This document shows positions 1-62,845 of a DNA stretch of 64,000 nt, in pieces; positions within the stretch are counted from its first letter, which is position 1; each line of letters begins with the position of its first letter. This stretch comes from Escherichia coli (GTDB lineage: Bacteria > Pseudomonadota > Gammaproteobacteria > Enterobacterales > Enterobacteriaceae). The stretch lies in NCBI RefSeq assembly GCF_001677475.2, contig NZ_CP015229.1; one strand, 5' to 3'. Under the pieces are notes generated by a model. That model was not told where the DNA came from. It did no database searches and worked only from the letters and a program-made list of their open reading frames with translations. Both the position numbers and the translations under genes were made by a program.

Positions 1-1393
1 CAGCCAGTGCACGTATAGCGGCGACAAAACAGGCCATCGGCGCAGTGGTGATCCCGGCACCAATTTGCCCGACTCCCGCTTGTTTGTGGGCGATACCCGT
101 ATTGATGACCGGTAAAATGCCGCGATCGGTAACTTTACGCGCATCAATCCCTGCTGCGGTGGGGGCAAAATTGAGGGCAGGAAGTGTAAATGCGGGGTTA
201 CCGCCGAGGGTGATTGCCTGCATCCGACGGCTGTTATTGGTGGCATCGGCAGGTGTGCCTCCCACAAATTTAACGATTGCCGGAGATGACGCCATCGCGA
301 AGCCACCTACACCAGCGGTTTCGGTAATTGCGCTATCGCCCAAGTCAGCAGCGGCGTCGTCAACGCCAAATCCAGGGAAGAACAGACCTTCAACTGCATT
401 GGCGGGAGCCTGGAACCAGCGATCGCCAGTACCGGAAAGCCGAATACCAAAATTCACCCCGTTACGCGCCATCACCGTAACCATTGAACTGAACGGTACA
501 TTGGCGGCGGCATCCATCATTGCTTTACAGGCAGCCATCGACAGATTGAGGAAGAAGTGATCGTTACCGGTGATAAATGCTACGACGCGCTGGATATGTT
601 CCTGTGGAAGAGAGCGGGCCAGCAATGCCGGGATCAGACGCTTAATCAGCAAACCGGTAGCGGCAGCATTGCGGTTATGAACTTCATCCCCCATATGTAG
701 CGCCTGCGCCATTAATGGCTTGAGTTCCAGCTCGCCGTGTTGTGCGATTGCTGCTTTCATTGCCGGAGCCAGTTCATCGCGCATCCAGGCCAGACGATTG
801 AGAACTTCGTCGTTATTGGCGCCAAAACGGAGAACCTTACCCAGACCTTCATTGAAATTACTAAAAGTACGATGACCGTTGGTTTTATTTTCCACCACCC
901 ATAACGGCATTGACGGGCTGATGATGCCTGCCATTGGTCCAACCGCGTGATAATGATGACAAGGGGCAAGGTCGATTTCGCCTGCGTTTATCTGGTTTTC
1001 TGCGTCTTGCTGGCTGGTGGCCCAACCTTCGTACAGCATGGCACCAATAATCGCCCCTTTTACCGGACCACACATCTCTTCCCAGGTAATCGGCGGGCCA
1101 GAGTGCAAAATACGTTTTTGTTCAGCCATTGCTGGAATGGCCTCTTTAGCGAGCATGACATCCACCAGCACGGGCTGTGCTTCGAGATAACGTGTCATGG
1201 CGATTTGGTTGGCATTTTCTACCAGTGGATGACGTAGCAACGATGCCAGATCCAATCCAGCGTCAATATCGCCTTGTGCTGGTGGCTGCCAGTTGAGTGC
1301 AATTGCGCTTCCCCCGGCATGTTGAATATTGTCAGCAAAACTGTGTAGTCCCGCGTTCACGACCTTCAAAGACTGATTAAATAAGGTATTCAT
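1..1393 (-). CDS. Putative YlbE/YahG-like protein (DUF1116 suggested by synteny), C-terminus beyond window start
   Basis: Hand translation of the minus strand from ATG at 1393-1391 (MNTLFNQSLKVVNAGLHSF...) stays open to position 1. Start overlaps the upstream stop as ATGA. Family assignment rests on position downstream of an fdrA-like gene, not on recognised motifs. Confidence 0.5.
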   Translation of the reverse strand, partial: MNTLFNQSLKVVNAGLHSFADNIQHAGGSAIALNWQPPAQGDIDAGLDLASLLRHPLVENANQIAMTRYLEAQPVLVDVMLAKEAIPAMAEQKRILHSGPPITWEEMCGPVKGAIIGAMLYEGWATSQQDAENQINAGEIDLAPCHHYHAVGPMAGIISPSMPLWVVENKTNGHRTFSNFNEGLGKVLRFGANNDEVLNRLAWMRDELAPAMKAAIAQHGELELKPLMAQALHMGDEVHNRNAAATGLLIKRLIPALLARSLPQEHIQRVVAFITGNDHFFLNLSMAACKAMMDAAANVPFSSMVTVMARNGVNFGIRLSGTGDRWFQAPANAVEGLFFPGFGVDDAAADLGDSAITETAGVGGFAMASSPAIVKFVGGTPADATNNSRRMQAITLGGNPAFTLPALNFAPTAAGIDARKVTDRGILPVINTGIAHKQAGVGQIGAGITTAPMACFVAAIRALA

Positions 1394-2949
1394 GCGTTTA
1401 GCCCCTTTTTCTGCAACTGAGTCTGTGCAACGGTGCTGGCCCATAGCGCCGCCTGTGCATTGCTGCTGGCGATGATGACCCCTGCATTTTGTAGTGCGCT
1501 TATCTGCTGGCTGCGTATTTGCGGATCAGCTTCCGTTCCGCAAACGTGCGCAATCAGCAACGGTGCGTTATTCATGTCGATGTGTGAAAGTTGGTCCAGT
1601 AATTCGCTGGCAGGCGTCGTGGAAGCGCCATAACCAAGTACCAGGTCGAATAACACGACGGCAGTGTGTGAGTCGTTGAGTTCGTTGAGCAGACGTTGAT
1701 TGCGCAGAGTCGGATCGATCATTGGATGCGGTTTGCCACGGGTGAAATCATCGTCGCCCATATCGATCAACGTGTGATCTTCGCTTTGCCAGATATTTGC
1801 CAGAGCACGATTACCCGCAACTGGCGTATTGGAAGCTGCGCTGAATCCCTTTTGTTGGCAGATAAGTTGCGCTTCGTAGCAGAAGGTTCCTCCGGCGAAA
1901 ACACCGCGTATCGCCTGGCGATGGGCTGGCAGGCGCTGGCAGGCGTTTTGTAACATTGTGAGATCGTCGCAGGGTACATCGGTTTCGACAGCCGGAAATG
2001 GCTGAGCATTCAGTAACGCCACAGCGATGTCGGCGGCGCTGGCAAGTGTGGTGGCGGCAGTGATATTGGGACGTGCCAGATCATGCGGATTCGCCCCGAG
2101 GAAATTCACCACCACGGGTTTTCCACAAGCCTCGGCGCGCTCCAGAATAGTCCGGGCAACGATCGGTGAAGGCGGTTTTGAAATAAGCACAATCACGCGA
2201 GTTTCATCGTCTTGCGCCAGCGCATCTAAAGCGAAGAGCATCGATATTCCACTAATCTCTTCACTGAGATCATGTCCGCCTGTTCCCAACGCCTGAGAAA
2301 TACCCGCTCCGAGCTGGTCGATTCGGCAAGTCACTTCCTGTAGCCCGGTGCCTGACGCGCCAATAACACCAATCGCTCCACGTTTCACCACATTGGCGAA
2401 GCCTAACGGAATGCCGTTAACGATGGCGGTTCCACAGTCAGGTCCCATTACGATGCGCTGACGTTCTCGGGCAAGTGTTTTGATGGATTTTTCCTGCGCG
2501 ATACTGACGTTATCGCTGAACATCATCACGTTCATTCCGAGGTTTAACGCTTTAATTGCTTCGGCGGCGGCGTAGTCTCCCGGTACAGAAATGAGTGCCA
2601 GGTTGGCTTCGGGTTCGGCTTCCAGTGCCATTTCCAGGCTGACCTTTTCCGGTGTTTTAATGCCACTACCCGTTTCATCATCGGGTTTGCTGGTCAGACG
2701 TTGCTGGGCCAGTACCAGTGCTTCATTGCAAATATCTTCTTCACCCATGACTGCAATCACTAAATCATTGGGACTGGCGTTGATTTCGTTACCCAGACCC
2801 ACATCGCGCAATTGTTCGAGATTATTGGGTGTTCCCATGACGACCGAAGCCTGTTGAATACCGGGCAATTTGCTGATTTGCGCGGAAATCTGCATCAGAG
2901 AAACCGAGTCCTGATAAAGATTGCTGAGAACTTTATGTTTAACTTTCAT
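1390..2949 (-). CDS. FdrA-like protein (succinyl-CoA synthetase alpha-like CoA-binding fold)
   Basis: 519 aa ORF; N-terminal YQDSVSLMQIS motif typical of FdrA/YahF; glycine-rich GVIGASGTG segment. Confidence 0.8.
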   Translation of the reverse strand: MKVKHKVLSNLYQDSVSLMQISAQISKLPGIQQASVVMGTPNNLEQLRDVGLGNEINASPNDLVIAVMGEEDICNEALVLAQQRLTSKPDDETGSGIKTPEKVSLEMALEAEPEANLALISVPGDYAAAEAIKALNLGMNVMMFSDNVSIAQEKSIKTLARERQRIVMGPDCGTAIVNGIPLGFANVVKRGAIGVIGASGTGLQEVTCRIDQLGAGISQALGTGGHDLSEEISGISMLFALDALAQDDETRVIVLISKPPSPIVARTILERAEACGKPVVVNFLGANPHDLARPNITAATTLASAADIAVALLNAQPFPAVETDVPCDDLTMLQNACQRLPAHRQAIRGVFAGGTFCYEAQLICQQKGFSAASNTPVAGNRALANIWQSEDHTLIDMGDDDFTRGKPHPMIDPTLRNQRLLNELNDSHTAVVLFDLVLGYGASTTPASELLDQLSHIDMNNAPLLIAHVCGTEADPQIRSQQISALQNAGVIIASSNAQAALWASTVAQTQLQKKGLNA

Positions 2950-3043
2950 GCTGTTACGCCTGTTTCATTCCGCCCGATAGTAAAATTCGGGCAAAGCATC
3001 CCCGTGTAGCGCCATAAATGAGCTACAGGAGAAAAGGTTGAAA

Positions 3044-3904
3044 TCAATTCATGGTGTTCAGGGTTCGAAAGCCATGCAGCATTCCTGCAAGGCAATCCAC
3101 TCCTGACGTTGCGCCAAATTGCATGACCTGTTCTGCACAGGATGCGATTGTCATTGCCGATGCGCCCCCAACCAGTTGTGCGAGTAACTGGCAAATCGGT
3201 TCTGAAAAATGCCCCCGAAGCGCACGCTCCAGATAATGACGACTGATGTCAGTGGTGTTGTGCGCATGTTGATCAATTGCCTGCTGCAACCGGTATTGAT
3301 GAGCGGCAAGTGGTGCAGGTAGTTGCCATAACCAGAGCGCTGCCAGATAGCCCAACAAATAGTCATCTCCATCGGGAGTTAAGCCTTTGCCAAAGCCGAT
3401 CAGTTGTGGCACCTGGCGTTCCAGCGCATCTGGATGTTCCATAATCTCTAATCCCTGGTGCGTGAGACTATCCGGCAGGTGCAATGTGCTTTGAACGTTA
3501 TGCTCCAGACAAAATAAAAGCCGTTGCGATGCCATCGTTGGGTAGTGCTGGAAAACCAAAGGGAACGCCTCAAGTGTCAGCCTTCCTCCCACAAATGACG
3601 GCTGCCAGAGCGTTGCGTTATCGAGAGCCACACAAAAGCGAGGTGTCTGCAGCAAGCCTGGGGTTAACTGAACGGGATCGGAATGGGCAATCTCTCTTCG
3701 CCAGTCCCAACGCTTAGGCAGCCAGACTCTGGCAGCATCAGGGAGATTCAGATACGTTTGCGCACACAACAGGGTGATGAATGTTCCCGCTTCTGAATAC
3801 AGATTTACCGCATGTTTAAAAGCACTGTGCAGACGTAAATCTTGCGTTTCATTCCACGGGAAAAGATATCCCAACGACGATGCGCAAAGCGTAACCTGTA
3901 CCAT
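3044..3904 (-). CDS. Putative YlbF/YahE-like protein (DUF2877 suggested)
   Basis: 286 aa ORF with a GKGLTPDGDD motif, sitting immediately upstream of the fdrA-like gene as in the fdrA-ylbE-ylbF and yahEFG paralogue sets. Confidence 0.5.
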   Translation of the reverse strand: MVQVTLCASSLGYLFPWNETQDLRLHSAFKHAVNLYSEAGTFITLLCAQTYLNLPDAARVWLPKRWDWRREIAHSDPVQLTPGLLQTPRFCVALDNATLWQPSFVGGRLTLEAFPLVFQHYPTMASQRLLFCLEHNVQSTLHLPDSLTHQGLEIMEHPDALERQVPQLIGFGKGLTPDGDDYLLGYLAALWLWQLPAPLAAHQYRLQQAIDQHAHNTTDISRHYLERALRGHFSEPICQLLAQLVGGASAMTIASCAEQVMQFGATSGVDCLAGMLHGFRTLNTMN

Positions 3905-3909
3905 CGGTG

Positions 3910-4578
3910 TTAGCCTTCCAGGCCTGCAATAATGGCTTTGGAATCAGTAACCCAACCGAAAATGGCACCTTGTGCTTTGATCATCTCCAGGGCGTATTTC
4001 TGGAATTCCGGGAAATAGGAGCCAACGCAATCTTCCGGGATGATGCACTCATAACCACGATCATTCGCTTCGCGCACGGTGGTGGTCACACAGACTTCCG
4101 TGGTTACTCCGCAAACAATCAGCGTTTTGATGCCGTGGTTTTGCAAAATCAGATGTAAGTCGGTTTGATAAAAAGCGCCTTTGCCGGGTTTATCAATCAC
4201 CGGTTCGCCTGCGACCGGGTACAGTTCAGGAATGATGTCATGACCTGCTTCACCTCTGACCAGAATGCGCCCCATCGGGCCTGCTTCACCAATAAAGGTT
4301 TTACCGCCGCGCGTCAGTTTGGCTGGTGGGCAGTCGCTTAAGTCTGCACGATGGCCTTCACGGGTATGAATAACCATAATTCCTTTTTGACGTGCGGCTG
4401 CCAGCACCTCTGTACATGGAGCGATAGCCGTGCGTACCAGTGAAACATCATTGCCCAGTGCCTCACCGAAGCCCCCTGCTTCGACAAAGTCACGCTGCAT
4501 GTCGATCATGACCAGTGCAGTTGTGCGCGGATCAAAAGGTAATTCAAAGGGTTGAGCCTGAAAAATGGATTGCGTCAT
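3910..4578 (-). CDS. Isochorismatase-family cysteine hydrolase (amidohydrolase-like)
   Basis: 222 aa ORF; MIDMQRDF aspartate motif near the N-terminus and LIVCGVTTEVCV cysteine motif; 5 nt from the next gene. Confidence 0.75.
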   Translation of the reverse strand: MTQSIFQAQPFELPFDPRTTALVMIDMQRDFVEAGGFGEALGNDVSLVRTAIAPCTEVLAAARQKGIMVIHTREGHRADLSDCPPAKLTRGGKTFIGEAGPMGRILVRGEAGHDIIPELYPVAGEPVIDKPGKGAFYQTDLHLILQNHGIKTLIVCGVTTEVCVTTTVREANDRGYECIIPEDCVGSYFPEFQKYALEMIKAQGAIFGWVTDSKAIIAGLEG

Positions 4579-4835
4579 GGTAAATCTCCTGTCTGATGTT
4601 TAAACGATCCAGTTGTTCTGAGAACGAGTATTCAGGAGAAAAGCGGCACAAAACAGGAAAAAAGTTTGCCGCACAGCAACGAAATTTTTGCATTCAGCAG
4701 GCGGCGTGATGACGAATGTGAAGGGGGTCAAATCGTGGCATACAGCAACAAAATTTTTGATGCTGTATGGTTTTGAGTTTAAAAAAATCGTTGAAATTGT
4801 GTGAGCTTAAGCACCTGAGTTAGCTGCTATGGTGG

Positions 4836-51355: not shown

Positions 51356-52621
51356 ATGCTCACGAAAAAGAAATGGGCGTTATTTAGTCTATTAACACTG
51401 TGTGGCGGTACAATTTATAAATTACCGTCGCTGAAAGATGCGTTTTATATCCCGATGCAGGAATATTTCCATTTGACCAATGGTCAAATTGGTAATGCTA
51501 TGTCGGTAAACTCATTTGTCACCACAGTGGGCTTTTTTCTGTCTATTTATTTTGCCGATAAACTACCGCGCAGATACACCATGTCACTCTCACTCATTGC
51601 GACAGGATTACTGGGTGTTTATTTGACGACAATGCCGGGGTATTGGGGCATCCTCTTTGTCTGGGCGCTATTTGGCGTTACTTGCGACATGATGAACTGG
51701 CCGGTCTTGCTCAAGTCGGTAAGTCGATTGGGCAATAGCGAACAACAAGGTCGGTTGTTTGGCTTCTTCGAAACAGGGCGTGGCATTGTCGATACCGTGG
51801 TGGCATTTTCTGCGTTGGCAGTATTTACCTGGTTTGGCAGTGGCTTATTGGGTTTTAAAGCAGGCATCTGGTTCTATTCCCTTATTGTGATTGCCGTAGG
51901 CATTATTATTTTCTTTGTCCTGAATGACAAAGAAGAGGCACCGTCCGTTGAGGTGAAAAAAGAAGACGGAGCATCGCAAAACACCAGTATGACCTCGGTG
52001 CTGAGAGACAAAACCATCTGGCTTATCGCTTTCAACGTCTTCTTCGTTTACGCGGTTTACTGTGGCCTGACATTCTTCATTCCATTCCTGAAAAACATCT
52101 ATCTATTGCCCGTTGCGTTGGTGGGGGCTTACGGCATCATTAACCAATATTGTCTGAAAATGATTGGAGGACCGATTGGTGGCATGATTTCAGATAAGAT
52201 CCTGAAATCGCCGAGTAAATATCTATGCTACACCTTTATCATCAGTACCGCTGCGCTCGTACTGTTGATTATGCTGCCGCACGAAAGTATGCCGGTCTAT
52301 TTAGGGATGGCATGTACATTAGGCTTTGGCGCGATAGTCTTTACACAGCGAGCCGTATTTTTTGCACCTATCGGCGAAGCAAAAATTGCTGAAAATAAAA
52401 CAGGCGCGGCGATGGCGTTGGGTAGCTTTATTGGTTACGCCCCGGCGATGTTCTGCTTCAGTCTGTATGGCTACATTCTGGATTTAAATCCGGGGATTAT
52501 TGGCTACAAAATCGTGTTTGGCATTATGGCCTGCTTCGCATTCTGTGGTGCGGTGGTTTCCGTAATGCTGGTTAAGCGTATTAGCCAACGTAAGAAAGAG
52601 ATGCTGGCGGCTGAAGCTTAA
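51356..52621 (+). CDS. yihN: MFS transporter YihN
   Basis: 421 aa polytopic membrane protein. Confidence 0.85.
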   Translation: MLTKKKWALFSLLTLCGGTIYKLPSLKDAFYIPMQEYFHLTNGQIGNAMSVNSFVTTVGFFLSIYFADKLPRRYTMSLSLIATGLLGVYLTTMPGYWGILFVWALFGVTCDMMNWPVLLKSVSRLGNSEQQGRLFGFFETGRGIVDTVVAFSALAVFTWFGSGLLGFKAGIWFYSLIVIAVGIIIFFVLNDKEEAPSVEVKKEDGASQNTSMTSVLRDKTIWLIAFNVFFVYAVYCGLTFFIPFLKNIYLLPVALVGAYGIINQYCLKMIGGPIGGMISDKILKSPSKYLCYTFIISTAALVLLIMLPHESMPVYLGMACTLGFGAIVFTQRAVFFAPIGEAKIAENKTGAAMALGSFIGYAPAMFCFSLYGYILDLNPGIIGYKIVFGIMACFAFCGAVVSVMLVKRISQRKKEMLAAEA

Positions 52622-52626
52622 TTAAT

Positions 52627-52649
52627 GGCCGGATGTGCTTAATCCGGCC
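52627..52649. terminator. Hairpin between convergent yihN and the DeoR regulator gene
   Basis: ggccgga tgtgcttaa tccggcc, 7-bp stem. Confidence 0.5.
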
Positions 52650-52680
52650 AACGAAAACCGTATCAACCGAAGTTTCAATT

Positions 52681-53469
52681 TCAGGATACTTCTTGCTCAG
52701 CAACCACCAGTTCAACATTCTCTTCACTTAACAACTGGCAGAAAGAATTGGGAGGCGGGGCATCAGTAAAAAAAGCCCTGACATTCCGTGCATTGCCAAT
52801 TGAAACGGCAGCAGACGCGGCAAACTTCGTATGATCGGCCACTAACAATGTATTCCGCGCATGTTTAATCATCGTTCTTGCGACTAACGCTTCATTGACA
52901 TCAAATTCCAGTAGGGTGCCGTCATGTTCAATGGCACCTATACTGGTGATTAAATAATCTGCGCGGAAGCCTTCAATAAAATCCACGGCTCCTGGGCCGA
53001 TAATCCCGCCGTTATGAGCGCGTAAAGTGCCTCCCGGCACCATCACTTCAATATCCTGATTCTTATAAAGAATCTGTGCCACACGTAGGCTGTTAGTGAT
53101 AATGCGTAAATCACGACGGTTGAGTAATGCCCTGGCAACGGCTTCTACGGTTGTACCGATGGTGATAAAGACGGTACAGCGTTCGGGAAGGTAATCGGCG
53201 ACTGCCTCAGCGATCGCCCGTTTCTCGGCGGTGAGCGAAAGTTCCCGTTGCTCAAAAGCGGTATTCATGACGCTGGAGACGCGCCCGGCCCCTCCATGAT
53301 GACGGGTGATCAACCCCTGCTCACTGAGTTTTCGGATATCCCGGCGCACGGTTTGCGTTGAAACATCCAGCAGTTGTGCCAGTTCTTCAATATTCATATA
53401 ACCGCGTTCTGCGATTAGATGAACGAGTTGGTCATGGCGTGGATTACCTGTCACTTCGATGATACTCAT
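52681..53469 (-). CDS. DeoR-family transcriptional repressor (YihW/CsqR-like)
   Basis: 262 aa; N-terminal HTH (IEELAQLLDVSTQTVRRDIRKL) and sugar-phosphate-binding C-terminal domain; homologous but not identical to K-12 YihW as I recall it. Confidence 0.85.
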   Translation of the reverse strand: MSIIEVTGNPRHDQLVHLIAERGYMNIEELAQLLDVSTQTVRRDIRKLSEQGLITRHHGGAGRVSSVMNTAFEQRELSLTAEKRAIAEAVADYLPERCTVFITIGTTVEAVARALLNRRDLRIITNSLRVAQILYKNQDIEVMVPGGTLRAHNGGIIGPGAVDFIEGFRADYLITSIGAIEHDGTLLEFDVNEALVARTMIKHARNTLLVADHTKFAASAAVSIGNARNVRAFFTDAPPPNSFCQLLSEENVELVVAEQEVS

Positions 53470-53508
53470 GAATACTCCCTTGCCCCTCCTCGGTATATGT
53501 TTACCATT

Positions 53509-54405
53509 TTACGCATAAAGTGACAAAAATGATTCGGTTTGCTCACGATTAGGAATGCCGGCCCGACCGCCAGGCTGGGTACATTTCATCGCGGCAACCG
53601 CACTGGCAAAACGAATAGCCTCTTTTGTTGGCATTTTTTCTGCCAACGCTACCGCGAGTGCGCCGTGAAAAACATCGCCTGCTCCAGTGGTATCAACCAC
53701 ATTGACAGAAAATGCCTCCTGTTGACACAAATGATCATCTTCAATCCACAACGATCCTTCAGAACCCAGCGTAACATACACTTTACCTGCTGTTTGTGTC
53801 GTTGCCTGGAACAAACCTTCTTCAGGTGACTGCAGGCCAGTCATGCGTTTCAGCCCCGGTGTTGAGAACACGGCGTGATCGGCAAGCGCGACAAGTGGAG
53901 AAATATCCTGCGGTGTCATATCGGCGTCTAAAAGCGTTGTCACCCCCGCAAGGCGCGCTAGCGAGAATGCTTTTTCAGTACCGCTATGCCAGCGAACATC
54001 GGCCAGAATCAGATCATAACGAGAGAAATCGATCGCTTCTAACCATTCGGCATCAGTACCGAGATCGGGACTTGGATAATTAACGATAATCCGTTCGCCA
54101 TGCTGATCAACGAGGATCGCTGATTGCGACGAACGGGCGTTAGGATATCGGCGGCAAAATGCGGTATTGACGCCCCAACCCTCAAGTTCTGCAAGTAAGG
54201 TATTTCCACAACTGTCATCGCCGACGCGACCGATGAAATCAACCTCCACGCCAAGCTTTGCGATTGCAACAGCGGCTGTTGCTGCCGGGCCGCCACCAAT
54301 CTCAAGATAATGATTTGCCTGATATTTCCCGCCGCCATCCGGCAGAGTGAGCAAAGAATAAATCCTGTCCTGAACTGTGATACCCACGCATGCAATTTTT
54401 GTCAT
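53509..54405 (-). CDS. PfkB-family sugar kinase (YihV-like)
   Basis: Start at [16 protein letters not shown]; [11 protein letters not shown] and [12 protein letters not shown] motifs; ORF track extends to 54456. Confidence 0.85.
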
Positions 54406-54577
54406 ATTTGTCTTGTCCTGTTTAATTTTGTCGTCTTTGGTCAATTTAAATGACACAAATGATCAAATTAGTGATGTGTGTCGTGTTTTTGAACATAAAT
54501 TACAAATATGCTCAAAAACAGACGAAAACGAATTTTCAATTGTCATTATTTTGTCAATGTCAGACAGGAGAGTATTC

Positions 54578-55456
54578 ATGGCAACCATTGCATTTCTCGG
54601 GCTGGGGCAGATGGGTAGCCCAATGGCTAACAATCTATTGCGAAAAGGGCATTCATTGCAGGTATTTGATGTCAATGCACAGGCCGTCGATGCGCTAGTT
54701 ACGCAGGGGGCCACTGCGGCACAAACCCCAGCGGAAGCGGCAGCAGGCGCTGAATTTATCATCACTATGCTTCCCAATGGTGACATTGTTCGACAGGTTC
54801 TGTTGGGGGAAAAAGGCGTCTGTGAGGCTGTTTCATCTGACGCGTTATTGATTGATATGTCGACTATTCATCCCTTACAGACCGATGCATTAATACGGGA
54901 GTTACAAGAAAAAGGCATCAGTATGATGGACGCCCCCGTGGGCAGAACATCCGTGAATGCGATTGATGGCACATTGCTGATTTTAGCGGGTGGCACTGAT
55001 GAGCAGATTGCGCGTGCACGCCCGATTCTCATGTGCATGGGTAATGAGCTGGTCGAGGCTGGCGGCCCAGGAATGGGGATCCGCGTGAAGCTAATTAACA
55101 ACTATATGAGCATTGCGCTTAATGCGCTGTCCTCCGAGGCCGCTGTGTTATGTGAGTCACTGGGATTAAATCTTGATGTCGCAATTAAGGTGATGAGTGG
55201 TACGGCAGCAGGGAAAGGACATTTTACGACCACCTGGCCTGGCAAAGTGCTGAAAGGCGATCTTTCACCCGCCTTCATGGTGGATCTGGCGTTGAAAGAT
55301 CTGCGTATTGCAGTTGACGTCGCTCGGGAGACGGGGGCACCGCTCAATATGGGGATTGCAGCAGAAAGTTATTACGCCGCAGCAAGTCAAGACGGCAAAG
55401 GGCGGCAGGACTGGAGCGCCCTGCTAAATCAGGTTCGCCAGCAGGCTGGTCTTTAA
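54578..55456 (+). CDS. NAD-dependent beta-hydroxyacid dehydrogenase-family reductase (YihU-like)
   Basis: Start at [20 protein letters not shown] (Rossmann GLGQMG) with RBS caggagag upstream; about 292 aa. Confidence 0.85.
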
Positions 55457-55480
55457 TTTTATCTATTAACAGGAGTTTCT

Positions 55481-56368
55481 ATGTCATCCCACTTCACCCC
55501 ATTTACGCTGAAAGATATCTCCCGCCCAGGTGGTGGATTCGCCATGTTAGCTGTCGATCAGCGTGAGGCCATGCGCCTGATGTTTGCGGCAGCAGGGCAG
55601 CCCAAACCCATCGCCGACAGTGTACTCACCGATTTTAAAGTTGCCGCGACCCGAATCCTTTCTCCTTATGCTTCTGCCGTTCTGGCGGATAAACAATTTT
55701 GTCTTGAGCAAATAGTCGAGCAGGGCGCTGTTGCTAATTCTTGCGGCCTGATTGTCGCTGCCGATCTTTTTATCCCAGGTAATGGCATCCCGGTTGATAG
55801 CGTTGAAATAGATATGTCCGTCGACCCGCATAAAGCCCGTGAAATGGGGGCTAAGGCAATGAAATTACTTGTACTCTGGCGTGAAGATGAACCCGCAGAG
55901 GAACGTCTGGCAATGGTTGATAAATTTGTTCGTCGCTGCCGTAGTGCCGGACTGGTTAGCATTATTGAACCTGTGGTGCGTCCACCTCGTCGCGGTTGGG
56001 ACTTTGATCGTGAAAGCGCCATTGCCGCGGCCGCCGCAGAGCTTGGTGGAACAGAGGCTGATCTTTACAAAGCCGAGATGCCATTAGGGGGCAAAGGCGA
56101 TGAAAAAACCTTACTTGCCGCCTGTCAGCAACTTAACGATCAGATGAAGATGCCGTGGGTAATTCTTTCTTCTGGCGTTGATGCCGATATTTTTGGCCGT
56201 GCAGTAAGTATTGCCATGAAAGGTGGGGCGTCGGGCTTCCTGGCTGGACGAGCGGTTTGGGCGTCGGTTGTTGGTGCACAAGATCCACAAACTATGCTGC
56301 GCGATGTCTCCGTTCCACGCTTGCAACGGCTGGCTGAAATTGTCGATGAAGGTATCGCGCAACGCTAA
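55481..56368 (+). CDS. Class I (LacD-like) ketose-phosphate aldolase (YihT-like)
   Basis: 295 aa; [14 protein letters not shown] and [12 protein letters not shown] motifs. Confidence 0.85.
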
Positions 56369-56400
56369 TCCCCTATGGATATCGATTCTGGAGAATAACA

Positions 56401-57411
56401 ATGGATAAAAGTACCCAGGTTTTATTTTCAGATATTGGGAAAGTCACCACTCAATATGTTGAAGTACCACACCAGGAACTTAAACCGCACGAAGTGCGGA
56501 TTGCGCCTGTGTTCTATGGGATATGCGGTTCGGATCTGCATGTTCTGAAAGGCGGTCATCCGTTTGCCAAACCACCTGTCGTCCCCGGTCATGAAATTGC
56601 AGCGCGCGTTGCGGAAGTTGGCAGCGACGTTAAAAATGTACAGCCGGGCGATCATGTTGTGGTCGATCCCATCATGGCTTGCATGGAATGCCGAGCCTGC
56701 AAAGCAGGACGTTTTAATCTTTGTGAACCACCGCAGGTTGCTGGTTTTCGCGCACCGGGCTTTGCTCGCTCACAACACATTGTTCCTGCGCGTAATTGCC
56801 ATGTCGCACCAGCCTCTTTACCGCTAAAAGTGTTAGCCTTTGCCGAACCGGCGGCTTGTGCTCGTCACTGCGTTAACCGAATGCCGAAAGCTTCTCTGGA
56901 AAGCGTACTGGTGATTGGTGCCGGAACGATAGGCTTATCCATCGTGCAGGCACTGCGCATTATGGGGGCAGGTAAGATTACCGTGATTGAACCTGACGCT
57001 GCCAAACGCGCGCTGGCGTTAAAGCTGGGCGCAGCAGAAGTTTGGGCACCAGGTGAGCTGGCCGCAGATGTGCGATTTACGGGGGCGATTGATGTCGTTG
57101 CAGCGCAGGCCACGCTTAACGATGCATGTACCCGTGTATATGCCGGAGGCACCGTCGTGTGCATGGGCGTACCAAGTGGGCCGCGTGAAATACCATTACC
57201 TATGATGCAACGTTTCGAGCGTGACTTGCTCAACTCTGGCATGTACATCCCTGAAGATTTCGATGCTGTTATCGAATGGCTGGCGGATGGGCGGTTTGAT
57301 ACCAGTGAACTGGTTACCGATTTATTTGCCATTGAGGATGCAGCGGCGGCATTCGAACGCGCGCAGCAAAATGACTCCATAAAGGTCATGCTGCAATTTG
57401 CGCCGGAATGA
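56401..57411 (+). CDS. Zinc-dependent medium-chain dehydrogenase/reductase
   Basis: 336 aa; catalytic-zinc GHE motif (PVVPGHEIAARV), four-cysteine structural zinc cluster (CMECRACKAGRFNLC), Rossmann VIGAGTIGL. Confidence 0.85.
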   Translation: MDKSTQVLFSDIGKVTTQYVEVPHQELKPHEVRIAPVFYGICGSDLHVLKGGHPFAKPPVVPGHEIAARVAEVGSDVKNVQPGDHVVVDPIMACMECRACKAGRFNLCEPPQVAGFRAPGFARSQHIVPARNCHVAPASLPLKVLAFAEPAACARHCVNRMPKASLESVLVIGAGTIGLSIVQALRIMGAGKITVIEPDAAKRALALKLGAAEVWAPGELAADVRFTGAIDVVAAQATLNDACTRVYAGGTVVCMGVPSGPREIPLPMMQRFERDLLNSGMYIPEDFDAVIEWLADGRFDTSELVTDLFAIEDAAAAFERAQQNDSIKVMLQFAPE

Positions 57412-57480
57412 TTTTCTAAATCTCTGTCTGGCGCTGCGTCACGTCAGCGCCACCCTACAACAATTAAAAAGGACACTGCG

Positions 57481-58914
57481 ATGAGTCAAATCACCAGTCC
57501 TGCAACTTATTCAATTAGTCGGCCACAGGACGTAATTGATATTGTTAATAAGAACTCTGCAATCAACACCAGTATCGGCGTTATTTTTATTGCTTTGGGC
57601 GGCATATTGATTGATGCCTACCAGGCGGCGATGGTGGGGTTTGGTAATAAATACATTGCCGCTCAATTCGGCATTTCGCCGGGTCTTGCTGCAACCGTCA
57701 ATGCATCAGTATTAATCGCCGCGTTAATTGGCGGTTTATTAGCGAACCGAGTAATAAACCGCTTTGGGCAAAAGCGGGCATTTATTATTGGCATGGGGCT
57801 GTGCACCATCGGTGCTGCAGCGGTAGCTATTGCTCCCAGTATCTGGTGGGTGCTGGTGTGCCGCGTCATCATGGGCTTTGGTTTAGGCATCGACTTCCCT
57901 TTGGCAACCAATGCCGTGGCAGAGCTTCGTGGTTCAACGTCGAAGAAAACCGGAACGTCGGTCAACCTCTGGCAAATGGCCTGGTATGTTTCGACAACCG
58001 TTGTTTATTTGGTGCTTTTGCCGCTGCTTCTGTCGGGTATCGCTGAAGAACAATTGTGGCGTTACGGAATATTCATCGGAGCTATTTTTGCAGTCATCTT
58101 CATGATTTTGCGTTACTTCTTTATTGGTGAATCCGCAATGTGGGCTGCACGCGTCGGGCGTTACCAGGAAGCGTGCGACATTCTGGGAAAACGTTATGGT
58201 GTTCAGGCTCGCGTTGCGGCATCGGGTACAACAGAAGCGAAATTCTCGGAAAAAGCAGAGAATAAATACAGTGGTGGATATGGCATCTTATTTAATGATC
58301 GTTACCGCAAACGCACCATTCTTGGTTGTGTCGTGGCAACCATGCAGGCGTGGCAATATAACGCCGTAGGTGTTTATCTTCCTCTTACGTTGGCGGGAAT
58401 AATAAGTGGCGGGCTTACTGGCGCGTTGACCGGTTCTGCCGTCGTGAATGCCCTTTGTGGGGTGACAGGTGGGATGATCGGCTCGTTTATTCTCCAACGA
58501 CTGGGTACTCGCCGACAGTCGATGTATGGATTTGCTGTTGTGACCTTAGCATTGCTGTCGTTAGGCGCACTGGCAACGACTAATCCCTGGCTGTCTTTAG
58601 GGTTATTGGGATCAATTATTTTCTTCCATTCAGCGGGTCCTGGTGGGCTGGGCATGACCATTGCCACACTCTCTTATCCTCCCGCTATTCGTCCTACTGG
58701 GGTCGGATTTGCCCGCGCTATTATGCGCACAGGGGCAATTGCAGGACTCATTTTCTGGCCGATGCTGTGGGGTACGTTGAAAACTGAAGCGTTTTATTGG
58801 TTGGCAATTGTGCCATTCCTGGGGTTCCTGACCTGCGTATTGATTAATTGGGAACCTTTGGGAGCAAATGTTGATGCTGAGGATGCAGAGGTTCTGGCTG
58901 AATTGAAGAAATAA
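57481..58914 (+). CDS. MFS transporter, subfamily unclear
   Basis: 477 aa polytopic membrane protein with a central hydrophilic loop. Confidence 0.8.
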   Translation: MSQITSPATYSISRPQDVIDIVNKNSAINTSIGVIFIALGGILIDAYQAAMVGFGNKYIAAQFGISPGLAATVNASVLIAALIGGLLANRVINRFGQKRAFIIGMGLCTIGAAAVAIAPSIWWVLVCRVIMGFGLGIDFPLATNAVAELRGSTSKKTGTSVNLWQMAWYVSTTVVYLVLLPLLLSGIAEEQLWRYGIFIGAIFAVIFMILRYFFIGESAMWAARVGRYQEACDILGKRYGVQARVAASGTTEAKFSEKAENKYSGGYGILFNDRYRKRTILGCVVATMQAWQYNAVGVYLPLTLAGIISGGLTGALTGSAVVNALCGVTGGMIGSFILQRLGTRRQSMYGFAVVTLALLSLGALATTNPWLSLGLLGSIIFFHSAGPGGLGMTIATLSYPPAIRPTGVGFARAIMRTGAIAGLIFWPMLWGTLKTEAFYWLAIVPFLGFLTCVLINWEPLGANVDAEDAEVLAELKK

Positions 58915-58951
58915 ATTAATGCGCATCGGCTTAAACCGATGCGCATTAATT
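58914..58951. repeat. 16-bp perfect inverted repeat (stem-loop or operator)
   Basis: aattaatgcgcatcgg cttaaa ccgatgcgcattaatt, starting at the stop codon of the upstream transporter gene. Confidence 0.8.
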
Positions 58952-59012
58952 CAAACTGCCCACGTTTAGTGGTTCGTATCCCAGATTTCTCGCCTACCAG
59001 GAGAGGAAAATT

Positions 59013-60362
59013 ATGTCTGAAAAGTTACCCGCACCGCGTGAAGGGCTTTCCGGTAAAGCCATGAGACGTGTCGTTATGGGCAGTTTCGCAGGCGCGTTAA
59101 TGGAATGGTATGACTTCTTTATTTTTGGCACGGCAGCAGGACTGGTATTTGCACCGCTGTTTTATCCAGACAGCGATCCTTTTATAGGTCTTATAGCTTC
59201 CTTTGCGACCTTTGGTGTCGGTTTTCTGACTCGTCCTTTAGGTGGCATCGTCTTTGGTCATTTTGGCGATAAAATCGGGCGAAAAATAACACTTATCTGG
59301 ACGCTGGCTATTGTCGGTTGCTCCACATTTTTGATTGGTTTTATTCCGACGTATCAGGAAATTGGCATTTGGGCACCGCTTGTATTAATGGTGCTGCGTT
59401 TGATTCAGGGCTTTGGTCTTGGTGGCGAGTACGGCGGAGCGGCATTGATGACCATAGAATCAGCGCCCGAATCCCGACGCGGATTTTTAGGTTCACTCCC
59501 GCAAACGGCTGCGTCTGTGGGTATTATGCTGGCAACCGGTATTTTTGCTCTCTGTAACCATTTTCTTACTTCGGAGCAGTTTCTCTCCTGGGGATGGCGC
59601 ATTCCGTTTTGGCTTTCTGCGGTGATGTTGATCGTTGGGCTGTTTATCCGCCTGCATACCGAAGAAACGCTGGATTTTCAAAAGCAAAAAACGACGAATA
59701 ATAAAGAAAAGTCCGTTCCTCCGTTGATTGAATTATTCAAAAAACATCCACGAAATATTTTATTGGCACTGGGTGCGAGGCTGGCGGAAAGTGTCTCCTC
59801 TAATATTATTAACGCCTTTGGTATTGTCTATATTTCCAGCCAATTAGCATTGTCGCGAGATATTCCCCTGACGGGTATGTTGATTGCCTCGGCGATCGGT
59901 ATTTTCAGTTGTCCATTGGTTGGATGGTTATCAGATCGTATAGGTCAAAAAAGTCTGTATTTGTCGGGAGCAGGATTTTGTGTCCTGTTCGCGTTTCCTT
60001 TCTTCTTATTACTGGATAGCAAAAGTACGCTCATCATCTGGTGCAGTATGATCCTCGGCTACAACTTAGGTCCGACGATGATGTTTGCCGTGCAGCCAAC
60101 ACTTTTCACCCGCATGTTCGGTACCAAAGTACGATATACCGGCCTTTCTTTTGCTTATCAATTTTCCGCGATTCTTGGCGGACTAAGCCCCCTTATCGCC
60201 TCAAGTTTGCTGGCGCTAGGGGGAGGAAAACCGTGGTATGTCGCTCTGTTTTTATTTGCTGTCTCAGTTCTTTCCTTTGTTTGCGTCTGGCTGATTGAGC
60301 CGACCGATGAACAAGAAACCGCTTCTTACCGCTACATCAGGGAACAATCTCATGAAAACTGA
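59013..60362 (+). CDS. MFS transporter of metabolite:H+ symporter type (ProP/KgtP/ShiA-like)
   Basis: 449 aa; WYDFFIFG and GLGGEYGGAALM signature segments. Confidence 0.8.
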   Translation: MSEKLPAPREGLSGKAMRRVVMGSFAGALMEWYDFFIFGTAAGLVFAPLFYPDSDPFIGLIASFATFGVGFLTRPLGGIVFGHFGDKIGRKITLIWTLAIVGCSTFLIGFIPTYQEIGIWAPLVLMVLRLIQGFGLGGEYGGAALMTIESAPESRRGFLGSLPQTAASVGIMLATGIFALCNHFLTSEQFLSWGWRIPFWLSAVMLIVGLFIRLHTEETLDFQKQKTTNNKEKSVPPLIELFKKHPRNILLALGARLAESVSSNIINAFGIVYISSQLALSRDIPLTGMLIASAIGIFSCPLVGWLSDRIGQKSLYLSGAGFCVLFAFPFFLLLDSKSTLIIWCSMILGYNLGPTMMFAVQPTLFTRMFGTKVRYTGLSFAYQFSAILGGLSPLIASSLLALGGGKPWYVALFLFAVSVLSFVCVWLIEPTDEQETASYRYIREQSHEN

Positions 60363-61239
60363 ACGAAAAAACGAGCATTACCTGGCGCTACAACAGGCGT
60401 TTGACGCGCCATGGCCTGGGCCTGTAGGAGAGTTAGTGACGCTGGAAAAAGGCAATATTCACCTGCAGATTTATCCGCATGATGGTGCCAGGATAACCTC
60501 GTTAAAGGCATTTGGTTCTGAAGTATTACGCCAATGGCAGCCGCAGCGCAGAGCTTTTCAGTATGGCTGTTTCCCAATGGTGCCGTGGGCAGGGCGACTG
60601 GGGAATGCGACGCTGAATGCTGGTGGGCAATGTTATTCTTTACCCGCCAATAAACCACCACATGCGTTGCATGGTATGGCTTGTTACTCAACGTGGGAAA
60701 TCATCGACAAAACAATAGATTCCCTGACTTTACGTATGCCCCTGGCTTCACCGTGGCCCTGGCAAGGGGAAGTGATTCAGACTTTTTTGCTGGAGAACGA
60801 TGCGCTGGTTTTGCAACTGGAAATCCATTCACATACCGATACATTCCCGGCCTCTGCAGGCTGGCATCCGTGGTTTGCGAAAAAGCTGACTCCGCAAAAT
60901 ACAGAATCGTTGCAGGTGCTTTTTGATGCGGACTGGCAAGAGGAAGCGGGTAGTGATGAACTGCCAACTGGAAATCGCATCTCTCCTCAAGCTGGTCCCT
61001 GGGATGACTGTTTTGGTTTTTATGACGGGGTGAAGGTTAAGTTACTGTGGCCTGGTAAACTCACGATGACCATGACCTCTTCTGCAAACAGTCTGGTGGT
61101 ATTTGATAAACAGCCCGATGCCACCTGTGTTAATCCGCTTACTCAGGCACCTAACGCAATAAATCTAACGCCGGAATTGGTGACATCAGATAAGCCGCTG
61201 GTCATCGAAACTCGTTGGCAATTTACACCTGAATCTTAA
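60352..61239 (+). CDS. Aldose 1-epimerase family protein (YihR-like mutarotase)
   Basis: Start at MKTERKNEHYLALQQAFD, overlapping the upstream transporter stop by 11 nt; ORF track starts at 60295. Confidence 0.75.
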   Translation: MKTERKNEHYLALQQAFDAPWPGPVGELVTLEKGNIHLQIYPHDGARITSLKAFGSEVLRQWQPQRRAFQYGCFPMVPWAGRLGNATLNAGGQCYSLPANKPPHALHGMACYSTWEIIDKTIDSLTLRMPLASPWPWQGEVIQTFLLENDALVLQLEIHSHTDTFPASAGWHPWFAKKLTPQNTESLQVLFDADWQEEAGSDELPTGNRISPQAGPWDDCFGFYDGVKVKLLWPGKLTMTMTSSANSLVVFDKQPDATCVNPLTQAPNAINLTPELVTSDKPLVIETRWQFTPES

Positions 61240-61249
61240 CCATTCATCT

Positions 61250-61290
61250 ATTGCGAAAAAGCCAGTGAAATTACTCTGCTTTTTCGCAAT
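61250..61290. repeat. 13-bp perfect inverted repeat with 15-nt loop
   Basis: attgcgaaaaagc cagtgaaattactct gctttttcgcaat, 11 nt after the mutarotase stop. Confidence 0.75.
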
Positions 61291-61379
61291 CAGCATCACA
61301 AGATTACCCTTATTGCCACATAGCCAAACCCATCCTTTCCCGCTACAGTTAATTTCTTGTGGCGCGAAAGGAGGCAAAA

Positions 61380-61979
61380 ATGCTCTATATCTTTGATTTA
61401 GGTAATGTGATTGTCGATATCGACTTTAACCGTGTGCTGGGAGCCTGGAGCGATTTAACGCGTATTCCGCTGGCATCTCTTAAGAAGAGTTTTCATATGG
61501 GGGAGGCGTTTCATCAGCATGAGCGTGGGGAAATTAGCGACGAAGCGTTCGCAGAGGCGCTGTGTCATGAGATGGCTCTACCGCTAAGCTACGAGCAGTT
61601 CTCCCACGGTTGGCAGGCAGTGTTTGTCGCGCTGCGCCCGGAAGTGATCGCCATCATGCATAAACTGCGTGAGCAGGGGCATCGCGTGGTGGTGCTTTCC
61701 AATACCAACCGCCTGCATACCACCTTCTGGCCGGAAGAATACCCGGAAATTCGTGATGCTGCTGACCATATCTATCTGTCGCAAGATCTGGGGATGCGCA
61801 AACCTGAAGCACGAATTTACCAGCATGTTTTGCAGGCGGAAGGTTTTTCACCCAGCGATACGGTCTTTTTCGACGATAACGCCGATAATATAGAAGGAGC
61901 CAATCAGCTGGGCATTACCAGCATTCTGGTGAAAGATAAAACCACCATCCCGGACTATTTCGCGAAGGTGTTATGCTAA
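61380..61979 (+). CDS. yihX: HAD-family alpha-D-glucose-1-phosphate phosphatase YihX
   Basis: Start at [16 protein letters not shown] (199 aa); HAD motif I. Confidence 0.9.
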
Positions 61980-62845
61980 AAACCATTCAGGACAAAGCCA
62001 GGCACCGTACCCGTCCACTATGGGCCTGGCTAAAACTACTCTGGCAACGCATTGATGAGGACAACATGACAACCCTGGCAGGTAACCTTGCCTATGTGTC
62101 GTTGCTCTCATTAGTGCCGCTGGTTGCCGTTGTTTTTGCGCTTTTCGCCGCTTTTCCCATGTTTTCCGACGTCAGCATTCAGTTGCGTCACTTTATTTTT
62201 GCCAACTTTCTGCCTGCTACTGGCGATGTTATTCAGCGGTATATCGAACAATTTGTTGCCAATTCCAACAAGATGACCGCCGTTGGCGCGTGCGGGCTGA
62301 TCGTCACAGCGCTATTGTTGATGTACTCCATCGATAGCGCGTTGAATACCATCTGGCGCAGTAAACGAGCGCGACCAAAAATTTACTCGTTTGCCGTGTA
62401 CTGGATGATTTTAACGCTGGGGCCGCTGCTGGCAGGGGCCAGTCTGGCGATCAGTTCCTATTTGCTCTCCCTGCGCTGGGCGAGCGATCTCAATACTGTC
62501 ATCGACAACGTGCTGCGTATTTTTCCGTTGCTGTTGTCGTGGATCTCCTTCTGGTTGCTGTACAGCATTGTTCCTACCATCCGCGTACCTAACCGCGACG
62601 CGATTGTCGGCGCGTTTGTCGCCGCGCTCCTGTTCGAAGCAGGAAAGAAAGGTTTCGCGCTTTATATCACCATGTTCCCGTCATATCAGCTCATTTACGG
62701 TGTGCTGGCGGTGATCCCCATTCTCTTCGTCTGGGTCTACTGGACATGGTGTATCGTCTTGCTTGGCGCGGAAATTACTGTCACTCTCGGGGAATACCGC
62801 AAACTAAAACAAGCTGCTGAACAAGAAGAAGACGACGAACCATGA
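61973..62845 (+). CDS. yihY: YihY/BrkB-family inner membrane protein
   Basis: 290 aa polytopic membrane protein; overlaps the yihX stop. Confidence 0.9.

Follow-up and report, generated by a model that had tools for sequence, protein, structure and literature searches.

Introduction

Sulfoglycolysis supplies 2,3-dihydroxypropanesulfonate (DHPS) as well as sulfolactate to sulfite-respiring, H2S-making gut bacteria, and in Escherichia coli it is commonly equated with the yih genes of strain K-12. The K-12 cassette is of the Embden-Meyerhof-Parnas type of sulfoglycolysis (sulfo-EMP) and lies between yihN and yihX, the minus strand carrying ompL-yihOPQRSTU and the plus strand yihV-csqR (Denger 2014; Sharma 2021, PMC8006165). 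A first-pass annotation made from the DNA studied here had given this layout correctly. Here we describe the same yihN-yihX site in a 64,000-nucleotide stretch of an E. coli genome (contig NZ_CP015229.1; the whole stretch is called the window below), where the interval is occupied by an eight-gene unit. We consider it probable that this unit is a catabolic module for an anionic C6 sulfonate, a variant of sulfo-EMP sulfoglycolysis in which a dehydrogenase provides the entry.

This locus was recently described by Kaznadzey et al. (2025), who reported a 'short yih cassette (yihTUVW)' at this site, in reversed orientation, in Nissle 1917 and many pathogenic strains (PMC12608037). The short cassette is scattered over the phylogroups, and its YihW is 72% identical to CsqR. 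Upon exposure of Nissle 1917 to sulfoquinovose, no induction of yihT, yihU, yihV or yihW was observed by RNA-seq or quantitative reverse-transcription PCR. The Nissle 1917 YihW binds the yihU/V region, from which sulfoquinovose releases it only weakly; both its DNA binding and its sulfoquinovose response are weaker, with weak binding at 37 °C. No YihS-type isomerase occurs elsewhere in the genomes of short-cassette strains. The authors state that the short cassette contains no yihR homologue, view it as truncated and conclude that it is probably no longer involved in sulfoquinovose degradation; the four genes downstream are not discussed (PMC12608037).

The window agrees with the published description of the short cassette, having the same flanking core genes, the reversed orientation, a YihW about 72% identical to CsqR and no yihOPQS. 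The locus is already in the literature but is mis-delimited there, and the four-gene definition is incomplete: the paper describes four genes as a truncated form, whereas the same locus here is an eight-gene unit that includes a distant YihR homologue. The first-pass annotation had left room for the arrangement being known already with an assigned function. Half of this holds, since many E. coli genomes have the arrangement and a 2025 paper already describes it, but substrate and function are not assigned in that description (PMC12608037).

Compared with the K-12 cassette, the module in the window has a homologous kinase, aldolase, reductase and repressor with identical substrate-binding residues, as well as divergent promoters and a predicted operator block common to both. 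It differs in its opposite orientation and in lacking the porin, the GPH-family transporters, the GH31 sulfoquinovosidase and the YihS isomerase. Instead, it has a zinc-dependent dehydrogenase, two anion-type transporters of the major facilitator superfamily (MFS) and a very distant mutarotase-like protein.

Results

Gene content of the yihN-yihX interval

Gene calls were taken from a listing of open reading frames (ORFs) and from the RefSeq annotation of a 98.8%-identical E. coli locus, and the proteins were compared to those of K-12. On the minus strand lie genes for a DeoR-family repressor resembling CsqR (YihW) (52681-53469; 71.5% identity to K-12 CsqR over 260 aa) and for a YihV-like PfkB kinase, the predicted sulfofructose 1-kinase (53509-54405; 66.7% identity to YihV). 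The plus strand carries, in this order, genes for a YihU-like beta-hydroxyacid dehydrogenase, the predicted sulfolactaldehyde (SLA) reductase (54578-55456; 72.3% identity to YihU), a YihT-like class I aldolase, the predicted sulfofructose-1-phosphate (SFP) aldolase (55481-56368; 66.7% identity to YihT), a zinc-dependent dehydrogenase of the medium-chain, polyol-dehydrogenase type (56401-57411), two MFS transporters (MFS1, 57481-58914; MFS2, 59013-60362) and a protein with an aldose-1-epimerase fold and an altered catalytic site (60352-61239). Each of the eight ORFs is intact. In the K-12 cassette nothing corresponds to the dehydrogenase or to the two MFS genes, and the epimerase is only a distant relative of YihR.

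The mirrored eight-gene layout proposed in the first-pass annotation was thereby confirmed, as was its claim that glycosidase, YihS-like isomerase and porin are all lacking. With 477 aa the largest ORF of the interval is far from the 678 aa of YihQ, so that a YihQ-sized gene can be excluded, and tblastn with the K-12 proteins OmpL, YihO, YihP, YihQ and YihS as queries gave no homologue in the whole window. Two of its gene assignments needed correction. The gene called a mutarotase is present, but its product is related to YihR only distantly (27% identity over 164 aa, E 3e-11). Likewise, two MFS transporters are encoded, but they are unrelated to the YihO/YihP family and belong to anion-symporter families.

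The interval had also been regarded as a rearranged yih island, which did not hold up. At the DNA level the four shared genes are 65-71% identical to K-12, compared to 97-99% for the flanks. At the protein level the values are 66.7-72.3% for the shared genes and 99-100% for the flanks, namely 99% for YihN (51356-52621, plus strand), which lies upstream, and 100% for YihX (61380-61979, plus strand), which lies downstream. We then surveyed 5426 complete E. coli genomes, counting the K-12 cassette at a coverage of at least 80%. The K-12 cassette was present in 3880 of them, whereas 1325 (24%, about a quarter) had the arrangement of the window; the carriers of the module include O104:H4. Counted separately, the yihTUVW-like half was present in full in 1325 genomes, and the half made up of dehydrogenase, both MFS genes and epimerase in 1327. 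Because the two halves co-occur, the module is always one eight-gene unit in E. coli. Diverged shared genes beside near-identical flanks, the constant eight-gene content and the spread of the module in other classes and phyla (see below) argue that the locus is an alternative allele at the site of the K-12 cassette, holding a separate and old module and not a reshuffled K-12 island. On the same grounds, that is sequence divergence, constant content and conservation in other phyla, we rejected the idea of a rearranged or truncated K-12 island. In particular, the conservation of the eight-gene unit in other phyla implies that the short cassette is not a truncation.

The lower pathway

Residues involved in sulfonate binding and catalysis have been determined for the K-12 enzymes (Sharma et al. 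2021, PMC8006165). These are K27-N109-R138, D244, D13, S95 and D162 in the kinase, the Schiff-base K193, S226, S227, R253 and A26 in the SFP aldolase, and N174, S178 and the backbone of R123 in the pocket of the SLA reductase. In the kinase of the window, the K27-N109-R138 triad, the catalytic Asp244 of the GXGD motif and the ligands D13, S95 and D162 are all identical to YihV. The aldolase has kept Lys193, S226, S227, R253 and A26, which are also found in seven other versions of the module, and its best matches in the Protein Data Bank (PDB) are the sulfofructosephosphate aldolases 7ag1 and 7ag7 (410-414 bits), compared to about 49 bits for LacD. In the reductase R123, K171, N174 and S178 are kept. 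This protein passes the NCBIfam equivalog NF012005 (sulfolactaldehyde 3-reductase) with 580 bits at a cut-off of 348, and scores 220 bits against tartronate semialdehyde reductase.

The divergent control region between the kinase and reductase genes has a conserved part of 80 nt (54444-54523; not assigned to a strand) that is 75% identical to the yihV-yihU intergenic region of K-12 and probably contains a CsqR-type operator and the promoters. Within the control regions of the window, K-12 and Citrobacter, a 29-nt block, ATAAATTACAAATATG(C/A)TCAAAAACAGAC, is nearly identical. This shared block agrees with the published cross-binding of both regulators (PMC12608037).

The identical sulfonate-pocket residues, the NF012005 score, the SFP aldolases as best matches, the shared control block and the replacement of the aldolase by a SqiA-like class II enzyme in other genera (see below) give good support to a predicted lower pathway in which sulfofructose is converted via SFP to dihydroxyacetone phosphate (DHAP) and SLA, and the latter to DHPS. 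The weak binding of sulfoquinovose by the Nissle 1917 regulator (PMC12608037), the complete K-N-R triad of the Telmatospirillum kinase and the aldehyde dehydrogenase of the Jejubacter version (see below) point the same way. Of the further components of a whole sulfo-EMP system, the window has neither an isomerase (YihS or SqvD) nor YihQ and the GPH-type YihO/YihP. As the first-pass annotation had proposed, a phosphorylate-cleave-reduce core is thus combined with entry steps and a substrate unlike those of K-12, glycosidase, isomerase and porin being absent. Neutral 6-deoxy sugars, which it had also listed as candidate substrates, are unlikely, since none of the known sulfonate-binding residues has been lost.

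A monoanionic group at C6 that suits this pocket might also be a sulfate ester, for instance a hexose-6-sulfate released from mucin, instead of a C-sulfonate. The association of the short cassette with pathogenic strains (PMC12608037), and that of 'SQ metabolism' genes (SQ, sulfoquinovose) and the sulfatase AslA with invasive isolates from inflammatory bowel disease (PMC11879602), would fit a sulfated host sugar. However, the shorter C-sulfonate is bound by these very pocket residues, the cluster contains no sulfatase, and soil, peat, marine and phototrophic bacteria carry the module as well. We regard a sulfate ester as a highly improbable substrate.

Dehydrogenase and transporters

In 17 orthologues of the dehydrogenase the catalytic zinc ligands C42, H64, E65 and E149, the four cysteines of the structural zinc site (C94, C97, C100 and C108), the Rossmann motif G173-x-G175-x-x-G178 and E197 at the end of the second Rossmann strand are invariant. 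The enzyme thus has what defines the polyol-dehydrogenase branch, a Cys-His-Glu zinc site, GxGxxG and an acidic NAD+ residue, and the acidic E197 suggests that NAD+ is the preferred cofactor. By family and by structure, its closest relatives are RspB, ketose reductase/sorbitol dehydrogenase (SDH), threonine dehydrogenase (TDH) and IdnD (L-idonate 5-dehydrogenase). Enzymes of these types oxidise a secondary alcohol beside a terminal CH2OH, turning polyols or aldonates into 2-ketoses. An AlphaFold2 model of the dehydrogenase (pLDDT 90.8) matches IdnD, RspB, SDH and TDH in fold (TM 0.82-0.86); such models confirm the folds, while the substrate is not identifiable from them. Against the RspB L-gulonate 5-dehydrogenase equivalog NF007489 the protein scored 164.8 bits, below the cut-off of 376. 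A literature search with protein accessions, and with sulfoquinovose combined with polyol or sorbitol dehydrogenase, linked the dehydrogenase to no pathway.

Apart from the kinase/aldolase core, the dehydrogenase is the only enzyme common to every version of the module, and its gene always adjoins that of an anion-type MFS transporter. Because of this constant presence and neighbourhood, its polyol-type relatives and the lack of an isomerase or glycosidase, we propose that it is the entry enzyme. Two other roles were considered. A function as a second SLA reductase, as in the zinc-dependent DHPS dehydrogenase HpsP, was judged unlikely because HpsP is no closer than other relatives and because the dehydrogenase coexists with an aldehyde dehydrogenase in Jejubacter. 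A role in redox balance, with dehydrogenase and reductase always paired, was dropped since the Jejubacter version has no reductase.

Both MFS proteins fall in families of organic-anion symporters. MFS1 is nearest to the aromatic-acid/H+ symporter family (105 bits against NCBIfam TIGR00895, below the cut-off), shows no similarity to YihO/YihP and is 64-78% identical in the modules of other genera. We propose that it imports the anionic substrate. MFS2, a ShiA-like member of the metabolite:H+ symporter family (410 bits against NCBIfam NF007414, cut-off 538; 407 bits against TIGR00883), is 62-72% identical in other genera and may be either an exporter of the C3 sulfonate or a second importer. The 98-bp spacer between the two genes contains a near-perfect palindrome (58912-58953; no strand assigned), detected in a scan for terminator-like structures. 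It has a 19-bp stem and a 4-nt loop, overlaps the stop codon of MFS1 and might act as an internal terminator, as an attenuator or as a hairpin that stabilises the RNA.

The nature of these proteins also raises the possibility that the substrate is a non-sulfonated acid sugar, with for example L-gulonate being converted by oxidation to fructuronate, which would be phosphorylated at C1 and then split into DHAP and tartronate semialdehyde, the latter being reduced to glycerate. The best matches of the dehydrogenase include RspB, of the L-gulonate 5-dehydrogenase type, both MFS proteins resemble carboxylate symporters, the YihU family is homologous to tartronate semialdehyde reductases at the score given above, and the sulfonate residues are missing from the kinases and reductases of the alphaproteobacterial and actinobacterial versions. 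This is quite unlikely for the window, where kinase, aldolase and reductase keep every sulfonate-pocket residue and the reductase scores far higher as an SLA reductase. Moreover, the class II aldolases that replace the class I enzyme elsewhere are SFP-aldolase-like, and a dedicated exporter would be needless for glycerate.

The mutarotase-like protein

The last gene of the module encodes a protein that matches Pfam PF01263 over residues 28-214 (E 4.6e-22), and its AlphaFold2 model is most similar to YphB (3nre) and GalM structures (TM 0.75-0.79). Both catalytic histidines are kept, but Asn261 (CVNP) stands where the C(V/I)EP motif has its catalytic Glu, so that the protein lacks one of the features of an aldose 1-epimerase (fold, two His and Glu). 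Besides the window, the Asn occurs in E. coli C4, Citrobacter, Vibrio, a Vibrio-like Logan contig and Sutterella, whereas Budvicia, Rhodopseudomonas palustris, Pleomorphomonas, Telmatospirillum and YihR have retained the Glu. The Asn261 codon, AAT, is two substitutions away from a Glu codon. From its sequence the protein appears to work like a mutarotase or to derive from one, and not to be a standard mutarotase.

A mutarotase-like protein would suit an aldose substrate, and sulfoquinovose itself might be degraded if this protein and the zinc dehydrogenase together replaced the YihS isomerase. This could occur through oxidation at C2 and re-reduction at C1 with retained NAD, or through a sulfo-alditol formed by an unspecific aldose reductase. 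The bypass of an isomerase by oxidoreduction is familiar from the fungal route of xylose reductase and xylitol dehydrogenase. On the other hand, we know of no medium-chain dehydrogenase that works as an aldose-ketose isomerase. The lower pathway is that of sulfoquinovose, the cassette regulator responded weakly to sulfoquinovose in vitro in electrophoretic mobility shift assays, and Nissle 1917 was reported to grow on sulfoquinovose like K-12 (PMC12608037). That growth was measured in M9 with 5% LB to an optical density of 0.2-0.3, and the transcriptome had signatures of starvation (PMC12608037); because of the LB and the starved-looking transcriptome we regard the growth as doubtful and give it little weight. 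Furthermore, sulfoquinovose induced no cassette gene in Nissle 1917, the differentially expressed genes in the supplement of that study include none of the four extra ones (PMC12608037), and the epimerase is missing in Streptomyces and Jejubacter and has lost the catalytic Glu in E. coli. Degradation of sulfoquinovose by this module therefore seems unlikely to us.

The module in other genera

Orthologues of the dehydrogenase form a tight family with 55-93% identity, while proteins outside the family reach at most 49%. A profile search of genome contigs with the dehydrogenase gave about eight true orthologue loci among the 80 matches listed, and every orthologue with a readable context sits in a module of the same type. 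In Citrobacter the module likewise lies between yihN and yihX, with protein identities of 74-93%. Further carriers are Budvicia, Vibrio rhodolitus, a Vibrio-like Logan contig, Sutterella, R. palustris BisB18, Pleomorphomonas, Telmatospirillum and Streptomyces. The module thus spans Gamma-, Beta- and Alphaproteobacteria as well as Actinobacteria, and includes soil, peat, marine and phototrophic bacteria. In these other taxa, identity to the proteins of the window is 47-78% for aldolase, dehydrogenase, MFS1, MFS2 and epimerase.

Single steps are replaced in some versions. A class II aldolase takes the place of the class I enzyme in V. rhodolitus, the Logan contig and Budvicia. The Vibrio protein, the sole class II version searched against the PDB, matched HpSqiA (8Q58, 365 bits) and YaSqiA (8Q57, 352 bits) best, compared to 246 bits for AgaY; HpSqiA and YaSqiA are experimentally validated class II SFP aldolases (PMC10665668). 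In R. palustris, Streptomyces and Pleomorphomonas kinase and reductase are just ~30% identical to YihV and YihU. In Telmatospirillum a YihV-type kinase with the whole K-N-R triad occurs together with a reductase of the type found in R. palustris. In Jejubacter an aldehyde dehydrogenase replaces the reductase, similar to known sulfolactate-forming sulfoglycolysis, and as in Streptomyces the epimerase gene is absent.

In the divergent module of Jejubacter calystegiae (CP040428, 7067-15329), the kinase is 47% identical to YihV and retains K27 alone. Alongside it are a class II aldolase, a regulator resembling CsqR, the dehydrogenase and a transporter of the MFS2 type, and after these come an enolase-superfamily dehydratase and the aldehyde dehydrogenase. 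The latter gave only generic matches in the PDB, with no specific link to sulfolactaldehyde dehydrogenases. This version may use a different substrate or make sulfolactate. As in Jejubacter, the transporter that adjoins the dehydrogenase in Prauserella is of the MFS2 type. In two Prauserella loci (2188-4641 in L013 and 7247-12368 in L014) a 45%-identical dehydrogenase lies beside an aldolase, a kinase and an MFS2-type transporter, with a more distant second dehydrogenase/MFS pair upstream; matches to MFS1, reductase and epimerase were not found. These loci possibly encode a related pathway for another substrate.

No isomerase was detected in the related loci, neither as PF07221 or PF02952 where gene calls exist nor as a blastp match to YihS in any locus, and the related loci examined contained neither YihQ nor another glycosidase. 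When glycosidases or sulfatases were sought among the neighbours in Citrobacter, Sutterella, Rhodopseudomonas, Streptomyces, Vibrio, Telmatospirillum and Jejubacter, only unrelated genes were seen, such as an autotransporter gene in Citrobacter.

The ratio of non-synonymous to synonymous substitution rates (dN/dS) between the window and Citrobacter was 0.025-0.10 over all eight genes, similar to the housekeeping flanks, the CsqR-like repressor having the lowest value (0.025) and the epimerase the highest (0.10). Purifying selection on all eight genes, together with cross-phylum conservation in which single steps are replaced, indicates a complete, functional and modular pathway. This bears on a reading close to the published one, in which a truncated yihTUVW cassette that has lost its catabolic role decays beside unrelated genes. 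Consistent with decay are the missing induction by sulfoquinovose in Nissle 1917 and the weak DNA binding of YihW at 37 °C (PMC12608037), as well as the loss of the catalytic Glu in the mutarotase-like protein. Nevertheless, eight intact ORFs under a selection as strong as that on the flanks, found together in essentially every carrier genome and kept as a gene set across phyla with non-orthologous replacement of single steps, argue against a remnant, and the change from Glu to Asn takes two substitutions and is common to four distant genera. We give a decaying remnant very little credence.

Other features of the window

At positions ~1-4600 the window has a cluster adjoining ysgA-udp that is annotated in a matching genome as YlbE-family protein, FdrA, AllH-family oxamate carbamoyltransferase subunit and cysteine hydrolase. 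It resembles a second copy of the fdrA-ylbE genes of the allantoin region, and to our knowledge K-12 has no such cluster at that place. The best identity to any of the complete E. coli genomes surveyed was 98.0% for positions 1-25000, 98.8% for 25001-50000 and 98.9% for 52000-62000. By these values the DNA appears to come from an Escherichia lineage that has no close representative among those genomes.

Discussion

Based on the gene content, we propose the following pathway for the module. The substrate is probably a sulfonated sugar or sugar alcohol, the simplest candidate being a 6-deoxy-6-sulfo-hexitol such as sulfo-glucitol or sulfo-mannitol. As an anionic C6 sulfonate it would be taken up by the anion-type MFS transporter; for its own upper pathway K-12 relies on a porin, a glycoside importer, sulfoquinovosidase, mutarotase and isomerase. 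The NAD+-dependent, polyol-type zinc dehydrogenase would oxidise the C2 secondary alcohol beside the terminal CH2OH, directly yielding 6-deoxy-6-sulfofructose (SF). The YihV-type kinase would phosphorylate SF at C1, the YihT-type aldolase would split SF-1-phosphate into DHAP and SLA, and the YihU-type reductase would convert SLA to DHPS, which might leave the cell through one of the MFS proteins. The divergent promoters would be controlled by the CsqR-like repressor, and the mutarotase-like protein may have an accessory function, perhaps with SF anomers or in sugar binding. Import and entry by the dehydrogenase are inferred from protein families and gene neighbourhood. That the zinc dehydrogenase is a new gateway into sulfoglycolysis for a natural C6 sulfonate, for example a 6-sulfo-hexitol, is a tentative proposal, which we would not yet favour over its negation.

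Several observations weigh against these proposals. The only experiment on the cassette gave no induction by sulfoquinovose in Nissle 1917 (PMC12608037), which excludes little beyond sulfoquinovose itself. Most versions contain a mutarotase-like gene, which is a hint of a hemiacetal sugar rather than an alditol. The dehydrogenase is only ~25-28% identical to any characterised enzyme, too little for its substrate to be deduced from homology. Among natural products no 6-sulfo-hexitol is known, and a full-text search for such names was blank. In R. palustris, Streptomyces and Pleomorphomonas, kinase and reductase lack the K-N-R triad and N174/S178, so in these versions the assignment to sulfonates comes from aldolase, dehydrogenase and transporters alone.

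About 24% of complete E. coli genomes thus carry at the yih locus a different, intact and selected module with a predicted sulfonate-specific core. Seen as an eight-gene unit that crosses phyla, it turns the question of why the pathway was lost into the question of which sulfonate is used. The eight-gene delimitation, the cross-phylum spread and the four additional proteins are new compared to the published description (PMC12608037). If the dehydrogenase is indeed a gateway, about a quarter of E. coli would harvest a sulfonated nutrient from a source other than plant sulfoquinovose glycosides and excrete DHPS. The carriers would include Nissle 1917 (PMC12608037) and O104:H4, in addition to soil, marine and phototrophic bacteria. 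A new natural sulfonate would add a compound and an enzyme class to the organosulfur cycle, and may explain a niche difference between E. coli lineages.

Parts of the proposed route resemble systems described elsewhere. In the L-gulonate pathway, GulD oxidises the carbon beside the terminal CH2OH of an anionic polyol, giving the 2-ketose D-fructuronate (Calhoun et al. 2018, PMC5788505). Among both families and PDB sequences, the window dehydrogenase matches RspB best (~26% identity), a protein listed as L-gulonate 5-dehydrogenase in the source databases, and the conversion of a sulfo-hexitol to SF would be the sulfonate analogue of the GulD reaction (PMC5788505). The two pathways differ downstream, where the module has a kinase and an aldolase but the GulD pathway a reductase and a dehydratase. 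HpsP, a zinc-dependent (S)-DHPS dehydrogenase (Liu et al. 2024, PMC11131964; PDB 8WWD), is likewise a zinc-dependent medium-chain enzyme and may be taken as a precedent for such an enzyme acting on a sulfonated polyol. It is among the structural and sequence matches of the window dehydrogenase, with ~25% identity no closer than other polyol dehydrogenases, and oxidises the primary alcohol of a C3 sulfonate, unlike the secondary-alcohol step proposed here.

With respect to sulfo-EMP clusters, those described in the available part of Sharma et al. (2023) include a sulfoquinovose isomerase, YihS or SqvD (PMC10665668), which the module of the window does not have. A cluster with a zinc dehydrogenase in place of the isomerase is mentioned neither in that part nor in the section on sulfo-EMP of a 2026 review. 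The hybrid sulfo-EMP1/EMP2 clusters with class II SFP aldolases (SqiA) described in that study (PMC10665668) have single steps swapped for non-homologous isozymes, as is likewise the case among the versions of the module described here.

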